A DNA stretch of 63,811 bases. Source: an uncultured Gammaproteobacteria bacterium (GTDB lineage: Bacteria > Patescibacteriota > Microgenomatia > Levybacterales > UBA12049). Below are positions 36,328 through 42,266 of this stretch, in pieces. The notes beneath the pieces were generated by a model. That model was not told where the DNA came from. It was given only the letters and a program-made list of their open reading frames with translations, and did not search any database. Position numbers and translations under genes: made by a program. Within the stretch, counting starts at the first letter, position 1. The number at the start of each line of letters is the position of its first letter. The DNA is taken from positions 1 to 63,811 of the forward strand of contig CAYQEE010000001.1 of assembly GCA_964416445.1 (NCBI GenBank), given 5' to 3'.

Positions 36328-37299
36328 ATGCTATTTCGAGATATTTTGTATAAAAATGTTACAAAAAATAACAGATGGTTACAGTATCTATTATTACTTG
36401 GCTATTCGCTTGTTATTATTCTTCTCACCAGTTATTTTGTGTATGTACTAATACTTTCGAAAATGCAACAAAACCAGGAAAAGATGCAAACTTCTCATAC
36501 TGCCGAAACTGCACCTCTCCCGGGAGATACTCGTCTTGAACAAAATGTTACTACAGAAACACCTCAGTCAACATTAGATCAAGAGATTGGAACCGATTCT
36601 ACAGGTAGTGCTTCAGTAATTTTGCATGGCTCTCGTGATTCGAAGCAGATTGCCTTAACCTTTGACGCAGAGATGACTGAATTTATGCGTGATCAAGTTG
36701 AAACAAAAAAAGTGAAAGATTCTTATGATAAAAGAATAATTGATTTACTCGATAAAACAGGTACCAAAGCGACATTTTTTTTAACTGGAATTTGGATTGA
36801 ACTTTATCCAAGTATTACAAAACAATTATCCAATGATCCATTATTTGAGTTGGGAAGTCACTCCTATGGAGATTATTCATATTCAGGAAGTTGTTTTGGT
36901 CTTCTGCCATTAACGGATGAACAAAAAATTGAACAAGTAGGAGCCACCGAATTACTTTTGAAAATTTATGGTGGAATAGAAAATAAACTTTTTCGATTTC
37001 CTGGTGGATGCTATTCTCAGAGTAATTTGAATTTAATTCATCAAGTGAACGATGTTGTTGTACATTGGGACGTGAACGCAAATGATGGATTTAACAATAA
37101 TACACAACAAATTATTAATAATGTGATTAGTACGGTACAAAATGGTTCGATAATTATTATGCATCTTAATGGTTCGCCGAATGCTCCAAAAACATTTGAT
37201 GCATTGCAAGTGATTCTTCCTACACTTAAGGCTCAAGGGTATCAATTTGTGAAAGTATCCGAATTACTCAATTTGTCACCCGAACAAAGAGTTTATTAA
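36328..37299 (+). CDS. Polysaccharide deacetylase (CE4/NodB-like) with divergent metal-site motifs, membrane anchored
   Basis: N-terminal TM; NodB-like order of motifs: IALTFDAE (36658-36672), ATFFLTG, GSHSYGD (36859-36873), FRFPGG, IIIMHLNG. Confidence 0.75.
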   Translation: MLFRDILYKNVTKNNRWLQYLLLLGYSLVIILLTSYFVYVLILSKMQQNQEKMQTSHTAETAPLPGDTRLEQNVTTETPQSTLDQEIGTDSTGSASVILHGSRDSKQIALTFDAEMTEFMRDQVETKKVKDSYDKRIIDLLDKTGTKATFFLTGIWIELYPSITKQLSNDPLFELGSHSYGDYSYSGSCFGLLPLTDEQKIEQVGATELLLKIYGGIENKLFRFPGGCYSQSNLNLIHQVNDVVVHWDVNANDGFNNNTQQIINNVISTVQNGSIIIMHLNGSPNAPKTFDALQVILPTLKAQGYQFVKVSELLNLSPEQRVY

Positions 37300-37370
37300 T
37301 TAATTCTCTTGCAAATGTACATATTGTTCTTTACACTAAAATTATACTTTAAAAATGGGGGTGATGAAAT

Positions 37371-37481
37371 GTGTTGAAAAAAATTAATACAACTCGAGCA
37401 AGAATTCCTGTCGTAAAACCAAATCCTTCCGCAAATAAATCTCGAGTAACAGCAACGAAAAATACAAAAAAGAAAAAATAA
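37371..37481 (+). CDS. Candidate 36-aa lysine-rich small protein (ORF B; not in ORF track)
   Basis: GTG start preceded by GGGGGTGAT (37357-37365), 8/9 match to GGAGGTGAT, spacing ~6 nt. Translation (M)LKKINTTRARIPVVKPNPSANKSRVTATKNTKKKK, stop TAA 37479-37481. No clear terminator. Confidence 0.4.
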   Translation: MLKKINTTRARIPVVKPNPSANKSRVTATKNTKKKK

Positions 37482-37520
37482 CGGATACATAAGACTGTAG
37501 TTGTTAATCGAAACAAGGAA

Positions 37521-37548
37521 TTGACAAGTTATTAGAATATCCTATACG
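37521..37548 (+). promoter_or_regulatory. Sigma70-like promoter TTGACA-N16-TATACG upstream of the ABC exporter
   Basis: Perfect -35 TTGACA at 37521-37526; -10-like TATACG at 37543-37548; ATG at 37577. Confidence 0.35.
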
Positions 37549-37576
37549 CTAAAAAGGCATTCATAAACCTGTCCAT

Positions 37577-39340
37577 ATGAAAGTTGAAAAACAAGTACTT
37601 TTTAACCTCATGAAACCTTATTTGTTAGGGTTGCTTGGGGTTATCTTGTTAATGTTTATGAATGTTGGCCTTGAGGCCCTCGCTCCTTGGCCATTTAAAT
37701 TTCTTATAGATAACGTTTTAGGTGATGAAGTCCTTGATAAACATACTCTTATTGGTGGGTTTTTTGCTCTTTTTGCAAATCAAGAATATTTAGGATATTT
37801 TATCGTTTTTGTCTTTTTCTTCATTAATATCTTACTGAGTTTTACTGAATATTTTCGATCAGTTTCGATGAAACGTGTTATTAAAGGAATAATTTATGAG
37901 TTTTCAAAAATTGCATTTAGTAACATGGAAAAATTTGATATTGGTTTCTTTAGAAAACAAGAAGTTGGAGATTATATCTACCGATTAAGTTATGATGTTT
38001 CTGCCCTCGGAGATTTAATTGAAGAAGGTATTCTCCCCATTATTACCTCTGGTCTCTATTTAATTATCACAACCATTATCATGTTTACGATTAGCATTAA
38101 ATTAACACTCATTTCCTTAGCTGCATTGCCGTTTCTTGCTGCTGGGTTATATGTCGTCAATAAACGAATAGCTAGCGCAAGCAAACGATCAGAGGGATGG
38201 AACAGTACTGTTTTTTCATTTATTCAAGAAGCATTAACGCAATTAAAGATAATTCAGGCATTTTCTCAAGAGGAGAAAGAATCTCAAAATTTTAATCATA
38301 CAATTAGAACATCACTCAAAACTGATCTTCACTTATATCGTTTGAATTTTTTACTGAGTCTCTTGGTAGGAGTTATTATCGCGGTATCATATTCATCAAT
38401 TATTGGTATTGGAATAAATTATTATTTTAATGGCGAATTATCTACTGGATTGCTCATTGTTTTTATTTTTTATCTTGATAATTTAACGAATCCATTGCTT
38501 GATATTATTTATGCCTCAACAGCGATAAAAGAAGCTCGAGTTAAAATCGCAAGAATGAAAGATTTTTTTGCGACGCAAAAACATACCCATGATACCGGTA
38601 CGTTAACAGAGATAACAAAGCCTTCTATTGAGTTTAGAAACGTTACCTTATATGGTGAGGCAGGTGTGAAAATATTAAATAATGTTTCATTTACGATTAA
38701 ACCTGGTGAGTTAACTGTCATTGTTGGCGTGAGCGGGTCAGGTAAAACATCGCTTATCTCTTTAATACCGCGACTGATTAATGAACCAAATGAAGGGCAA
38801 ATTCTTATTGGCGGTCATGATATCCATGAATATGCATTACAAACCTTGAGAAATGCCATATCGCTTGTTCCTCAAGAAAATATACTCTTTAATGAGACTA
38901 TTCATGATATTATTGCCTACGGCAAATCTAGTGCCTCTATGGAAGAAATAAAACATGCAGCACGATTAGCAATTGCAGATGAATTCATAGAGGAACATCC
39001 TCATGGTTATAAATTTCGAGTTGGAGAAGGGGGTAATTATTTATCAGGTGGTCAAAGACAGCGGCTTATGTTGGCACGAGCATTTTTGAAGCCAGCCGAA
39101 ATTTTTATTTTTGATGAACCTTTATCAATGTTAGATATTAAAACTCGTTCAAAAATTTGGCATACGATTCTTGAAGTATCACAAGGTAAAACGACGATTA
39201 TTGTAACCAATGTGTTAGATGTTATTACCAGAGCGGATCAAGTTATTTTTATCAGTAAAGGAAAAATTATTGAGTCAGGAAAGCATAATGATTTATTAAA
39301 AAAATCAAATCTTTATCATCTTATGGTAACAACCGATTAG
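37577..39340 (+). CDS. ABC exporter, fused TMD-NBD half transporter (MsbA/PglK-like)
   Basis: Six-TM N-terminal domain; Walker A GVSGSGKTS, signature LSGGQRQRLMLARA, Walker B IFIFDEPLSMLD; no C39 peptidase domain. Confidence 0.93.
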   Translation: MKVEKQVLFNLMKPYLLGLLGVILLMFMNVGLEALAPWPFKFLIDNVLGDEVLDKHTLIGGFFALFANQEYLGYFIVFVFFFINILLSFTEYFRSVSMKRVIKGIIYEFSKIAFSNMEKFDIGFFRKQEVGDYIYRLSYDVSALGDLIEEGILPIITSGLYLIITTIIMFTISIKLTLISLAALPFLAAGLYVVNKRIASASKRSEGWNSTVFSFIQEALTQLKIIQAFSQEEKESQNFNHTIRTSLKTDLHLYRLNFLLSLLVGVIIAVSYSSIIGIGINYYFNGELSTGLLIVFIFYLDNLTNPLLDIIYASTAIKEARVKIARMKDFFATQKHTHDTGTLTEITKPSIEFRNVTLYGEAGVKILNNVSFTIKPGELTVIVGVSGSGKTSLISLIPRLINEPNEGQILIGGHDIHEYALQTLRNAISLVPQENILFNETIHDIIAYGKSSASMEEIKHAARLAIADEFIEEHPHGYKFRVGEGGNYLSGGQRQRLMLARAFLKPAEIFIFDEPLSMLDIKTRSKIWHTILEVSQGKTTIIVTNVLDVITRADQVIFISKGKIIESGKHNDLLKKSNLYHLMVTTD

Positions 39341-39360
39341 TATGAAAGGAGGTGTAGCAA

Positions 39361-39471
39361 ATGATGGGAAAAAGTAATTCTAGACCTGACTCAAAACCAA
39401 GACCCGTAACGCCAAAACCGCCACAAGGTTTTGGAAGAGTTAGAGTTTCAACACCAAAAAAAGGAAAATAA
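39361..39471 (+). CDS. 36-aa basic Pro/Lys-rich small protein (ORF A; not in ORF track)
   Basis: Perfect SD AAGGAGGTG at 39346-39354, 6 nt before the ATG; MMGKSNSRPDSKPRPVTPKPPQGFGRVRVSTPKKGK; starts 20 nt after the ABC exporter stop; followed by an intrinsic terminator. Confidence 0.65.
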   Translation: MMGKSNSRPDSKPRPVTPKPPQGFGRVRVSTPKKGK

Positions 39472-39491
39472 TTTTTTACTAACTTTTTAAT

Positions 39492-39525
39492 AAAATCCGC
39501 TTTAAAAGAGCGGATTTTATTTTTC
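39492..39525 (+). terminator. Rho-independent terminator
   Basis: 9-bp stem AAAATCCGC (39492-39500) / GCGGATTTT (39510-39518), 9-nt loop, followed by ATTTTT. Confidence 0.75.
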
Positions 39526-39627
39526 TCTATTGACAATTGTATTATATTAATTCACGATAATAATAACTTCTAACCTCTCTGCCTAAGGTTATAAATAGAG
39601 TGTGTTAGACAAAAGGAGGTGAATACA

Positions 39628-39723
39628 ATGGCTGCCAAAAAATCAACAAAGAAAGCAGTAAAAAAGGCTGCTCCAAAAGGAATCAAGTTACCAGGGAAAA
39701 AAGTTATTTCAAAAAAACGATAA
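39628..39723 (+). CDS. 31-aa highly basic (AKK-rich, histone-H1-tail-like composition) small protein (ORF C; not in ORF track)
   Basis: Perfect SD AAGGAGGTGA at 39613-39622, 5 nt before the ATG; MAAKKSTKKAVKKAAPKGIKLPGKKVISKKR (13/31 K+R, no acidic residue); followed by a strong terminator. Confidence 0.65.
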   Translation: MAAKKSTKKAVKKAAPKGIKLPGKKVISKKR

Positions 39724-39737
39724 ATTTGTAATGACTT

Positions 39738-39772
39738 TAAAAAAAGAACCCGTCTTAGACGGGTTCTTTTTC
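39738..39772. terminator. Bidirectional Rho-independent terminator between convergent genes
   Basis: A-tract 39738-39744, stem AGAACCCGT (39745-39753) / ACGGGTTCT (39759-39767), T-tract 39768-39771; the minus-strand NHL gene stop is at 39774-39776. Confidence 0.8.
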
Positions 39773-39773
39773 G

Positions 39774-42266
39774 TTAGAGGCACAGATACAAGGAGCAGTA
39801 AGTATCATATCGCTTTTTTGATAACACGGTTAATAAATTAAGGGGCTCGTTGAATTTCTTTATATTATAACTTTGTAGGTTATTTGGTGAAGTATTGGTA
39901 TTTTTGGACGATTCAGTAGATGTTGCTATCTCGAAACTGGGCAGCTCCACATAATTATCATTGAGATATGCAGATAAAAATACTGAATATGTTGCATTGT
40001 CATGGAGATCTCCATTAGGAATGCTTACTAGGTATCGGGATGTAGGTGTCCCGGTAGTCGTATAGGATACTGTACAATTGCTTGCATTAGCATCCGGACA
40101 ATTCTGATCAGTCAATTGCAGTGTTACCGTGGCATTTGCTGCAACAATTCCTGTGAAAGTTGGAGTGAGCGTCTGGAGAGTATATGATTTTTGTATATCG
40201 CTCGGATGTATCGATGAAAGGTCTACAGAACCTATGCTATCGATATGAGAAATGGTGAGTGGGAAAAAACTAGTAGACGAAAGTATATCTAATGAGTTAA
40301 CGCGAAAAGTACCAGTATTATCCTGGGTCTCTTGAATATGACCTCCATTATCAAACGCGTCAACTTTCCATTGATAACTACCGGAAGGTAATGTTTTGCC
40401 CCCTTCAAAAAATGACTTATTATTTGAATCGATAGCATTTACTTGGATCTCTGAACTTTCCTGTGAATAAACAGCATGAAAGGAAGCATTTTCATAAATT
40501 CCATTATTTGTAGTCGTGTTCTTGTAAGTTGCTGCGTTTTTGTTATCACTATTTCCTTTTACACTTGCGAAATCAACAGGGATATTATCGAGGTAAGGAA
40601 GCCAATCATTTGTTGTTCCAACACGCTTAATGTAAATAGCATATTTTGTAACATTATCTCTCATTGCAGTATGCTGTGTACTAACCGAAAAATCAAATAC
40701 AGGAAGCGAAGTAGTAAGCAATTGACCTCCAGCTGGACTATTCAATGCAAACGGTTGAAAGTAAAATGCATTTCCAAGAATATCATTATTATTATCAGTA
40801 ACACGAATGCGAACATTATAGCTTCCATCTGCTGGAGGGTTATTGAGCGTTGGATCAAAATCGAAGTAAAACGATTCAGGATTTTCATAGAATGATCCAT
40901 CAGCTGATTGTACTCCATCCCAGGTACCATAATTCACTGAATCTTCTACATTTCGAATAGTATAGTTTGTATCTACCGATGCAGTTCCCGTAAGCCGTAA
41001 CAGTGGCCCGTCAGGCTGACCTACCGTACTATTTGCAAGGGAAATATTTGGTTGAGCTGTTGCATTTGGATAAATTATGACTCTATTATTTGCTGTATCT
41101 GAAACAATCAGTTGTGAACTTGTTGCAAATACTCCTTGAGGTCCAGAAAGTGATCCAGGATTCAATCCATTCGTATTATTGATACTCGTATTAAATGCGA
41201 ATTGTCCTAATACAATATCAGCTACTGGGTTATTTGCAGCAGGGACAGAATTGAAAATAAGAACACGATTATAGGTGCGTTCGGCACCATACAGTCTTCC
41301 GTTTGTGTCAAAGGCTAGTCCATAGGGTTTAAAGGTAGATCCAGTAACCGTTGTTCCCCCGCTCAGTAGTGAATTTGATGTAAAGTTTGGCTGACCGAGA
41401 ACACTATCTGCTGATGCGCTACTCGTAGTGGGAATTGTACCAAAATTTAATGTGCGGTTGTTGTTTAAATCACCAATAATTAATCTCCCATCACTATTTA
41501 CGGCTATTGCACTTGGACTTGCTAATCCACTATTGGATAATCCAAAGGTATTTGCCGTTTTAGTGGTAAATACCGATTGGCCAATAACAGTATTCGCACT
41601 TGCGTTGGATCCTGTCGGAATAGTATTAAAAATAAGTACTCTATTATTTCCTCGGTCTGCAATGAGTAGTTTTGTTCCATTTGAAGCTACTGAAGTTGGA
41701 TTCTGTAGCGTATTTGGTCCAACAGTTCCTGTTTGGTTAATGCCACATGAAGTAAAATTTTGTTGTCCAATAACAACATCTGCTTTTGCACCATTACTTG
41801 TCGGGATAGTGTTATAAATAAGCACGCGATTATTATTTGTGTCTGCAATAAACAGTTTTCCATTTACGGAATAAATACTTCCCTCACCAATATTAACTGT
41901 TGTTTGCGTACAACCTCCGCCACCTGTTGAAAATCCACTTTGTCCGATTACTGTATTTGCTGAAGCATTTGCTGATGTTGGAATGGCATTAAATATTAAC
42001 ACACGATTATTGCCATTGTCTGCTACCAGGAGTTGATTTCCGACAATAATTGCACCACCAGGTCCATTTAGCGTATTGCTAGAAATTGAACCACCTTGAT
42101 TTGCTGCATTGGAAAACATATCAGGTTGACCGATAACAAGAGTTGCGTCCATTCCTGAGTAATATGCTGAGGCGTTAAACAGTAACGGAGCTAGGAGCAA
42201 AAAAATTACCCCCATGGATAGGAGAGATACTCCGAATAAATACGATTTGATATAATAAAATCGCAT
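39774..42266 (-). CDS. Secreted NHL-repeat six-bladed beta-propeller protein with large uncharacterised beta-rich C-terminal region
   Basis: Signal peptide/anchor (LFGVSLLSMGVIFLLLAPLLFNASA); six units ending in (N/Y)N(R)(V/T)L(I/N)(F/Y)N.IPT....A..V(I/L)GQ..F; ~420 further aa with no recognisable motifs. Confidence 0.85.
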   Translation of the reverse strand: MRFYYIKSYLFGVSLLSMGVIFLLLAPLLFNASAYYSGMDATLVIGQPDMFSNAANQGGSISSNTLNGPGGAIIVGNQLLVADNGNNRVLIFNAIPTSANASANTVIGQSGFSTGGGGCTQTTVNIGEGSIYSVNGKLFIADTNNNRVLIYNTIPTSNGAKADVVIGQQNFTSCGINQTGTVGPNTLQNPTSVASNGTKLLIADRGNNRVLIFNTIPTGSNASANTVIGQSVFTTKTANTFGLSNSGLASPSAIAVNSDGRLIIGDLNNNRTLNFGTIPTTSSASADSVLGQPNFTSNSLLSGGTTVTGSTFKPYGLAFDTNGRLYGAERTYNRVLIFNSVPAANNPVADIVLGQFAFNTSINNTNGLNPGSLSGPQGVFATSSQLIVSDTANNRVIIYPNATAQPNISLANSTVGQPDGPLLRLTGTASVDTNYTIRNVEDSVNYGTWDGVQSADGSFYENPESFYFDFDPTLNNPPADGSYNVRIRVTDNNNDILGNAFYFQPFALNSPAGGQLLTTSLPVFDFSVSTQHTAMRDNVTKYAIYIKRVGTTNDWLPYLDNIPVDFASVKGNSDNKNAATYKNTTTNNGIYENASFHAVYSQESSEIQVNAIDSNNKSFFEGGKTLPSGSYQWKVDAFDNGGHIQETQDNTGTFRVNSLDILSSTSFFPLTISHIDSIGSVDLSSIHPSDIQKSYTLQTLTPTFTGIVAANATVTLQLTDQNCPDANASNCTVSYTTTGTPTSRYLVSIPNGDLHDNATYSVFLSAYLNDNYVELPSFEIATSTESSKNTNTSPNNLQSYNIKKFNEPLNLLTVLSKKRYDTYCSLYLCL
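41052..42146 (-). repeat. Six tandem NHL-type blades (protein-level repeat, ~60 aa period)
   Basis: NNRVL at aa 86, 145, 207; NNRTL 269; YNRVL 332; NNRVI 393, each followed by IPT/VPA...A(N/D).V(I/L)GQ. Confidence 0.8.

Follow-up and report, generated by a model that had tools for sequence, protein, structure and literature searches.

What are three very small, lysine-rich open reading frames (ORFs) doing around the gene for an ATP-binding cassette (ABC) exporter in a member of the Patescibacteria? The ORFs, named A, B and C here, lie in a 63.8-kb stretch of contig CAYQEE010000001.1 (the whole stretch is referred to as the window), part of a 1.92-Mb genome (G000; 47 contigs, 35.7% G+C), and DNA near-identical to the window is present in soil metagenome runs, no RNA run being listed among the matches. 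Patescibacteria are believed to lead a life attached to other cells, and very few of their genes can be recognised as effector genes. Genome annotation routinely overlooks proteins shorter than 50 amino acids (aa), and in this group, to our knowledge, hardly anything has been learnt about them. In this study, we report that A and C are very probably real protein-coding genes, that they represent two peptide families linked to one subfamily of exporters, and that the peptides can be read, tentatively, as cargo of that exporter. Comparisons were made with 194 genomes of the same family, from soil and groundwater Patescibacteria. ORF A and its relatives are called A-type and ORF C and its relatives C/D-type, D denoting the 34-aa genes of genome G064 and of contig C25 of G000.

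The coordinates and translations of the three ORFs given in an earlier note on this DNA were confirmed (Table 1). As that note had also claimed, the 9-mer AAGGAGGTG was found at two sites only in the window. These + strand copies, at 39346 and 39613, precede the ATG of A and C, respectively, by 6 nucleotides (nt). The 3' end of the 16S rRNA of this genome, recovered as a fragment at a contig end, reads GGATCACCTCCTTTCT, so that the uninterrupted complementarity of the Shine-Dalgarno (SD) site extends over 11 nt for both A and C. Each of the two ORFs is followed by a strong hairpin and a T-tract (-16.7 kcal/mol after A and -23.4 kcal/mol after C), and none of 200 shuffled sequences folded as stably in either case; a simple terminator scan listed only the hairpin of A. 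The hairpin of C is preceded by an A-run, followed by a T-run and directly adjacent to the end of the convergent NHL-repeat gene; it would therefore act as a terminator shared by both genes. Since A starts 20 nt after the exporter stop, with no terminator in between and one past its own end, it is by all these signs co-transcribed with the exporter. ORF C, by its predicted sites, has its own start signals and terminator, and the hexamer listed in Table 1 as a possible -35 element of C is absent from the list of a consensus promoter scan. A search of Rfam returned nothing above threshold in the window, and a permissive scan of 37200-39900 gave sub-threshold, terminator-driven matches only.

The weight of these SD sites depends on how the rest of the genome is translated. 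The earlier remark that large genes mostly lack an SD site holds genome-wide: among 1566 crude ORFs with 120 aa or more, an SD match of at least 4 nt is missing at the first start in 1215, and at every start within the first 40 codons in 900. The 9-mer occurs 49 times in the genome, with an ATG 3-12 nt downstream at 44 of these copies, and the ORFs behind it have a median length of 88 aa (29/44 are no longer than 107 aa). Pfam families were assigned to 19 of the 36 such ORFs with at least 45 aa. These comprise ribosome and nucleoid proteins (L7/L12, HU and YbaB), stress-related families (two Hsp20, KGG, YflT, Transgly_assoc and AHSA1) and a remainder of XseB, LemA, an RRM protein, DUF308, DUF1269, DUF5670, DUF6496, a glyoxalase-like protein, a T4SS pilin and a transposase. 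By these counts the 9-mer is almost always functional in this genome, and A and C bear what appears to be a translation signal kept mainly for small, abundant or stress-related proteins. The set also includes several small membrane proteins without assigned function, and as a whole it resembles a high-expression or stress set. Two more basic ORFs of 46 aa with a strong SD site and no family match were noted at C10:72142-72282 (-) and C11:7274-7414 (+); the gene immediately upstream of one is LexA-like, and the other lies between a gene for an 837-aa protein without assigned function and a LytR_C-domain gene.

Database searches placed neither peptide. A and C are called as proteins on four public contigs each, and each forms a singleton cluster at 90% identity. 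Single-peptide searches of 60 related genomes gave best E values of 0.43 for A and 0.099 for C. Among 1.84 billion representative proteins, only A itself was retrieved, together with a 1751-aa protein lacking an aligned stretch, and thus no relative of A; the Atlas held no usable match for A and, for C, unnamed clusters of 30-33 aa scoring 0.87-0.89, below the 0.9 line. Pfam and NCBIfam gave no match for A, B or C at E up to 1, which agrees with the earlier judgement by eye that A and C do not belong to a ribosomal-protein family, and neither PADLOC nor PHROGs matched these ORFs or the peptides of their relatives.

It was gene order that proved decisive, relatives being found at the loci of related exporters. 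Genome G147 has a 29-aa A-type ORF, MPKPKIGRVSVKTKPSKPPQIQPKKGKGK, 23 nt past the exporter stop, with a 12-nt SD site and a strong hairpin plus T8 behind it. G215 has a 35-aa A-type ORF, MAKRERQKSQPSRPQSRPSSSRPVPRTGRVRVKGR, 21 nt past the exporter stop, whose SD match of 6 nt lies within AAAGGGGGTGAT, and next in line a 32-aa C-type ORF, MAIKRTVKTAPKKKPSVAKKSVIHTPARRKKR, with a 12-nt SD site and a hairpin. The distance between the stop of the orthologous exporter and the A-type gene is 20-24 nt in all three genomes. At 113 nt past its exporter, G064 carries a conserved block made up of a promoter-like TTGTAA-N17-TATACT, the SD site GAAAGGGGGTGA, a 34-aa ORF (MATLKKPSRPAARPAAKPKAVAKKVVKKLTKKKH) and a terminator; the same block, with ORF MATLKKPSRPAARPAAKPKAVAKKIVKKATTKKH, stands behind the exporter on contig C25. 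C-type genes just downstream of an exporter were thereby found at four loci in three genomes. The A-type alignment has P.P...GRV(R/S)V in common and the C/D-type alignment MA.xK...A...P...K.V...KK(R/H). Judged by these alignments, A and C belong to two small, lineage-restricted families, one proline-rich with the GRV(R/S)V motif and one with the MA.xK start and KK(R/H) end.

The pattern of substitutions points to coding. The D genes of G064 and C25 differ at 13 nt, nine of them at third codon positions, which gives seven synonymous and three non-synonymous codons, the latter all within the last ten codons. While the exporter genes at these two loci are ~80% identical in DNA, the spacer just past the exporter stop is full of indels; the terminator stem of the D genes shows a paired compensatory change that keeps the helix. 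For A, a 665-nt contig of a related strain (run X5) has four differences from the window inside the ORF, all of them synonymous, and the exporter has 24 differences across the sequencing runs compared, 18 of them synonymous. No stop or frameshift, proposed earlier as the sign of an RNA element, was encountered among the relatives in these comparisons; the frames are kept and the changes mostly synonymous, which favours coding. The earlier view that A and C are deliberately and strongly translated gains from SD site, terminator and conserved frame alike, and we regard the two as real protein-coding genes with high confidence.

The exporter itself contains an N-terminal ABC_membrane domain (PF00664, 3.5e-31) and a C-terminal ABC_tran domain (PF00005, 1.9e-29) in one chain, and its closest solved half-transporter is Sav1866, matched over the full length at 268.9 bits. 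By these matches it is an ABC exporter of the type IV fold (Sav1866/MsbA/ABCB-like). Its best NCBIfam match, that to the MsbA (lipid A flippase) equivalog, scored 337.4 bits against a cut-off of 602. A C39 peptidase domain was not found in it: the membrane domain starts at residue 22, and matches to C39-type families span residues 70-584 and fall below their cut-offs. Close homologues of the exporter occur in only 6 of the 194 family genomes. Within one alignment, the identities to the window exporter were 57% for a second copy on C25, 64% for G147, 60% for G215, 56% for G064 and 49% for G062; the exporter of G106, cut by a contig end, is 55% identical by the family search instead. A scan of metagenome contigs with the exporter retrieved no close relative, the best full-length matches being 27-29% identical and partial matches to the nucleotide-binding domain (NBD) reaching 51%. 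A wider scan, with one genome for each of 185,579 species and two motifs conserved in the subfamily, yielded nine loci with an exporter at least 45% identical; three were records of G215, G147 and G062, and six were new. On C25, the second exporter (C25:3154-4971, -) and its 34-aa C/D-type gene (C25:2933-3034, -) form a locus ~80% identical in DNA to that of G064, and this copy may be a true paralogue or bin contamination (stated contamination 2.9%).

Linkage between peptides and exporter was examined with profiles and with a positional count. In the family genomes, the A-type profile retrieved only G000, G215 and G147 (next best E = 0.004, in a 241-aa frame) and the C/D-type profile only G000 (twice), G064 and G215 (next best E = 0.06, in a 211-aa frame). 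Every genome with an A-type or C/D-type peptide also carries the exporter subfamily. When a small basic ORF with an SD match of at least 6 nt was sought at loci with enough downstream sequence, with the same script for controls, a peptide gene was present downstream of 6/11 subfamily exporters versus 0/24 other ABC exporters of the same family, which are 23-36% identical. Outside the family, locus L162 (exporter 47% identical) has a 37-aa lysine-rich ORF 7 nt past the stop, with the SD site GGAGGTGAT. Four of the six new loci yielded no peptide ORF by these criteria, one of them, L163, having only a 44-aa ORF with a 5-nt SD site 470 nt downstream; for L160 there is just 135 nt of downstream sequence.

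Gene order supports the same link. The window has a deacetylase gene, B, the exporter, A, C and the convergent NHL gene; G215 has a divergent NHL gene, the exporter, A, C and a 57-aa membrane protein; G147 has a gene without assigned function, the exporter, A and secA; and G064 and C25 have a divergent gene without assigned function, the exporter, D, and then a convergent gene, likewise unassigned, and a deacetylase gene. The flanks vary between loci while the exporter-peptide pair persists. An exporter-linked role, as first suggested for all three ORFs, is thus borne out by conserved gene order as far as the link to the adjacent exporter is concerned, and the share of B in it is not, as B has no counterpart at related loci. 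A SecA tree, built from that single gene for 29 of the 194 family genomes and including five cassette carriers, showed the carriers scattered: five changes are needed, at least four of them forced by well-supported branches, and the carriers cluster no more than shuffled labels do. The cassette therefore behaves as an accessory module, and from these counts it is both rare (6/194 family genomes) and patchy. On present comparisons, the genes and their linkage to the exporter are solid, and membership in a known family is not claimable for the peptides. The membrane protein that follows the C-type gene in G215 (L117:3679-3852) is a conserved two-helix protein of 56-57 aa with a strong SD site and has a homologue in G000 at C16:23801-23971 (-); G215 has several small genes with strong SD sites in a row.

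Table 1. Features of the exporter locus in the window, with the basis of each assignment
Feature	Position	Strand	Basis or remark
SD-like site of ORF B, GGGGGTGAT	37357..37365	+	5 nt before GTG
ORF B, 36 codons, GTG start (TTG one codon later), doubtful gene	37371..37481	+	translation
ABC half-transporter, exporter type, 587 aa (transmembrane domain + NBD), without peptidase domain	37577..39340	+	Pfam ABC_membrane, ABC_tran
Shine-Dalgarno site of ORF A, GAAAGGAGGTG	39344..39354	+	6 nt before ATG; starts 4 nt past exporter stop
ORF A, 36 aa, Pro/Lys/Arg-rich, net charge +9, A-type, GRV(R/S)V motif	39361..39471	+	translation, conservation
Predicted intrinsic terminator after ORF A, 15-bp stem then T-tract	39489..39527	+	folding z = -5.8
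TTGACA hexamer, possible -35 for a separate ORF C promoter	39530..39535	+	no convincing -10 assigned
Shine-Dalgarno site of ORF C, AAAGGAGGTGA	39612..39622	+	complementarity to 16S 3' end
ORF C, 31 aa, Lys/Ala-rich, net charge +13, C/D-type	39628..39723	+	translation, conservation
Predicted bidirectional terminator, ORF C and convergent NHL-repeat gene	39739..39771	both	folding z = -5.7
Convergent NHL-repeat gene, 830 aa	39774-42266	-	

The nine peptides compared start at the Met that the SD site positions and are 29-37 aa long, with a net charge of +9 to +13, an isoelectric point (pI) of 11.5-12.0 and a grand average of hydropathy (GRAVY) of -0.8 to -1.8. Each has 3-6 Ile/Leu/Val/Phe/Trp/Cys residues and 1-7 prolines, the A-types 5-7. 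Neither a signal peptide nor a hydrophobic N-terminus nor a membrane segment was detected in them by sequence and composition, and they are probably hydrophilic, disordered polycations. Because the genes appear real and strongly translated, A lies in the transcription unit of the exporter, and the families occur only beside this patchily distributed subfamily, we infer that the exporter handles the peptides. They would be synthesised leaderless and pass to the exporter next door, which would pump them out as secreted or envelope-bound polycations and would also hold their cytoplasmic level harmless. This reading, with export and an extracellular role, is the one that we favour, with reserve and as a tentative proposal drawn in part from analogy.

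The nearest analogue is LsbB of Lactococcus lactis, a leaderless 30-aa bacteriocin that is secreted by the ABC-type multidrug transporter LmrB, which also gives immunity, according to the available text of PMC6131525. The same text supports two likenesses: a short (~30 aa), cationic, fairly hydrophilic and leaderless peptide beside a multidrug-type ABC exporter without peptidase, and several peptide genes at one transporter locus. Measured against leaderless bacteriocins in general, the locus has the small cationic leaderless peptide and the adjacent ABC exporter gene; an amphipathic helical or saposin-like peptide with a hydrophobic face was not found by composition, nor was a sequence relation to any bacteriocin family. 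LsbB differs in its net charge of +6 and GRAVY of -0.68, whereas the peptides here carry +9 to +13 and have, by composition, no evident amphipathic helix-forming N-terminus. They also show no detectable sequence relation to any family, and their host belongs to the Patescibacteria and not to the lactic acid bacteria. The proline-rich antimicrobial peptides of insects and mammals are eukaryotic, are processed from precursors and act after uptake into target bacteria. In composition only, the A-types resemble them, being short, rich in Pro, Arg and Lys, non-amphipathic and with P-x-P spacing.

Several observations weigh against export. Five of the 11 subfamily exporters lack such an ORF downstream, and the peptides are therefore dispensable for the pump. 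Since genes for NHL-repeat proteins and polysaccharide deacetylases recur as neighbours, the adjacency conserved among related genera is in part inherited. By composition, the peptides have no hydrophobic or amphipathic face, unlike the leaderless bacteriocins covered in the available text of PMC6131525, and Pfam and NCBIfam revealed no separate immunity gene, peptidase domain or leader at the locus. The antisense frame of A and of D is open and shares the third positions, and the synonymous counts consequently show coding constraint and not the strand; the coding strand follows from the SD site, the ATG and the terminator. The same perfect SD site marks abundant cytoplasmic or stress proteins (L7/L12, HU, YbaB, two Hsp20, KGG, YflT and RRM), and in most of the family secA is preceded by lysine-rich mini-ORFs that have no exporter near them, which fits a housekeeping intracellular role.

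The last two points lead to the closest rival of the export proposal, in which A and C encode abundant small intracellular polycations that bind nucleic acids, ribosomes or other polyanions, like histone-H1-like tails or tiny basic ribosomal proteins, are expressed with the abundant and stress-related small proteins, and have the exporter as a mere transcriptional neighbour. The extreme charge and pI of the peptides and their want of any signal peptide or hydrophobic segment suit such a role, as does a perfect-SD class dominated by small abundant or stress proteins. In their length of 20-45 aa, basicity and strong translation signals they are like bL34, bL36, bTHX, bS22, bL37 and HC2. A weak lead is that HC2 is present on 20% of the members of the nearest named Atlas cluster of C, which scores just 0.80. 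Set against this, there is no profile match to bL34, bL36, bL33, bTHX, bS22, bL37 or HC2, nor any other ribosomal-protein or histone-like match in Pfam and NCBIfam (including PF07382, E up to 1), and the genes are narrow in distribution, accessory, exporter-linked and outside ribosomal operons. A-type and C/D-type peptides occur in three of the 194 genomes each, always beside the exporter subfamily and at none of the 24 control exporter loci, a distribution unlike that of a core nucleoid or ribosome component. We consider this reading almost as probable as export and, like export, somewhat on the unlikely side.

A poly-lysine mini-gene upstream of secA also speaks for it. This genome has, outside the window and ~105 nt upstream of secA, a 20-aa ORF, MAAKKTKKKKTAKRKTKSRK (C15:9885-9947, -), with an 11-nt SD site. 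A mini-ORF of 9-30 codons with a near-perfect SD site, such as MAKKKKKKK, MAKKRKKRK or MAAKKKAKKKATKKRK, precedes secA at 26 of the 28 family secA loci with enough upstream sequence; in most cases 90-135 nt separate its stop from the start of secA. These mini-ORFs, lysine-rich, with the same SD site and near-universal at that locus, suit an intracellular binder. Their Lys codons are AAG in 64% of cases (112/174), compared with 18% genome-wide in G000. Such an ORF is also present at 4 of the 26 secA loci sampled from the class beyond the family; these four represent two families, with 2/2 genomes each. In G147, the exporter and A-type gene abut a terminator and a secA promoter homologous to those that follow the poly-lysine ORF in the sister genome G188 (L116/L119 on contig C5 versus L191), so the cassette, and with it the A-type gene, occupies the place of the mini-gene. 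One pattern search for a poly-lysine mini-ORF elsewhere in G064, G147 and G212 gave only the N-termini of ordinary proteins in the nine loci inspected. ORF C and the secA-side mini-ORFs are alike in their start (MAAKK), SD site and composition. The C/D profile does not retrieve the C15 ORF, which is absent from its 12 best matches (E up to 19), and kinship of C with the poly-lysine ORFs accordingly lacks demonstration. The idea that oligo-lysine replaces a missing polyamine synthesis was set aside, since its premise is unsupported: spermine-synthase-like and Orn/Arg/DAP decarboxylase domains are present.

The arrangement of the secA locus bears on a further rival, in which the ORFs act in cis as sensors. 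As leader or upstream ORFs they would control a neighbour by being translated, for example through stalling on runs of Lys or Pro, and the product would be irrelevant, as in SecM-secA and BmrB-bmrCD. At most secA loci a TTGACA-type promoter is followed by the SD site GGAGGTGA(T) or GGGGGTGA, the mini-ORF and a hairpin closed by TTGGTAA/TTACCAA, whose tip varies yet keeps pairing; past it come a nearly invariant palindrome, a GC-rich terminator and an extended -10-like TGnTAAAAT 6-7 nt before the secA ATG. So short a distance suggests a leaderless secA mRNA, which would fit the general lack of SD sites on large genes. The palindrome, 18 bp in loci L181-L206 (ACCAATTGATCA(A/G)TTGGT), lies between mini-ORF and secA, and its left arm can pair instead with the TTGGTAA just past the mini-ORF stop, which would make two hairpins mutually exclusive. 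As the palindrome is invariant, it gives no covariation signal, and an operator bound by a protein is an equally good reading of it. In this genome no copy lies within one mismatch, the best, on contig C4, having two, and Rfam returned no family match for the secA-side element.

Such alternative 7-mer pairings (TTGGTAA / TTACCAA / TTGGTAA) before secA count in favour of a sensor, and small ORFs beside export ATPase genes recall SecM and BmrB: B lies 95 nt upstream of the exporter, the A-type ORF of G147 is followed by a hairpin plus T8 and then by secA, A contains PKPP, and B and C contain Lys runs. Several features count the other way. Between the mini-ORF and secA stand the terminator and the extended -10-like site. 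Past A, the window has a terminator and then C, and past C a terminator and the convergent gene, so that neither has a gene to regulate downstream, and the spacer between B and the exporter has no significant structure and no attenuator. Conservation of the GRV(R/S)V residues with mostly synonymous change indicates selection on the peptide sequence. Arrest peptides differ as well, in that A, B and C have no signal or membrane segment and no known C-terminal arrest motif, the RAPP-type motifs given in the available part of PMC12992588 being absent from all three. A cis-acting role is accordingly improbable.

Equally improbable is that the peptides are small accessory or regulatory partners which bind the cytoplasmic face of the exporter and tune its activity, in the manner of small proteins that act on other transporters. 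The placement of A in the operon, 20-24 nt past the exporter stop in 3/3 genomes, and its conserved GRV(R/S)V motif would agree with this. The small-protein regulators of transporters that are known to us are membrane helices, and A and C lack any hydrophobic segment, no single transmembrane helix being recognised in A, B or C; the 5 of 11 subfamily exporters without such an ORF also speak against a partner.

That the ORFs are no genes at all, and just frames left open by chance in AT-rich spacers, or pieces of RNA elements, is very unlikely as a general account, since A and C keep frame, motif, SD site and terminator across genera with no Rfam family at or near threshold, and it concerns mainly B. 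ORF B starts with GTG or TTG, lacks both a terminator and relatives, and appears neither in the protein collection nor in public gene calls; by arithmetic from base composition, a frame of 36 codons stays open by chance for ~7% of starts at 35% G+C. Its SD site has an exact match of 6 nt (GGTGAT), the 9-mer having one mismatch. Position 37359 is A in the contigs of runs X4 and X5, which makes the site a perfect GGAGGTGAT in these two runs. The G-for-A variant GGGGGTGA is also the SD site of the conserved D genes and of G215's A-type gene, and hence works in this lineage. Apart from B, nothing occupies the 277-nt spacer. In the X5 strain, B has one synonymous change and one Ala-to-Thr, hence one of two substitutions is synonymous; run X8 covers the 3' part of B, with no difference inside it. 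Neither X6 nor X8 extends over A or C, and a 33-nt match between C and an X5 contig, with flanks that differ, was set aside.

The kinship of B with A proposed from their similar tails did not hold up. Their local alignment scored 27 and shuffled sequences 23.7 on average (p = 0.24), so that the resemblance does not exceed chance; the same holds for A and C (p = 0.85) and for B and C (p = 0.65). ORF B is not among the 12 best of 40,723 small ORFs retrieved with a profile of three A-type peptides. No counterpart was present upstream of any related exporter examined, and B was found in this genome only. The 95-nt spacer between B and the exporter folds no better than shuffled sequence (z = -0.08; 94/200 shuffles fold as well), and a BmrB-like attenuation leader was ruled out for B because that spacer is unstructured. 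Taken together, B falls narrowly on the doubtful side as a gene.

A limited literature search found nothing on such peptides in Patescibacteria, nor on poly-lysine ORFs that precede secA. The mini-gene at secA is a separate element, widely conserved and unexplained. As a core component it might form, together with accessory A-type and C/D-type peptides pumped out by a dedicated Sav1866-like exporter, a functional class of encoded oligocations of its own, acting on the envelope, hosts or competitors; we think this unlikely. The two peptide families of this locus have clear expression signals, bear evidence of selection and are accompanied by a conserved partner gene, which turns the export of leaderless polycations by a multidrug-type pump into a testable hypothesis. 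If the peptides act inside the cell, they would represent new and abundant binders of polyanions, in a lineage whose proteome is reduced; if the wider reading as an oligocation class holds, they would constitute a non-amphipathic, leaderless, ABC-exported peptide system without a described bacterial counterpart.

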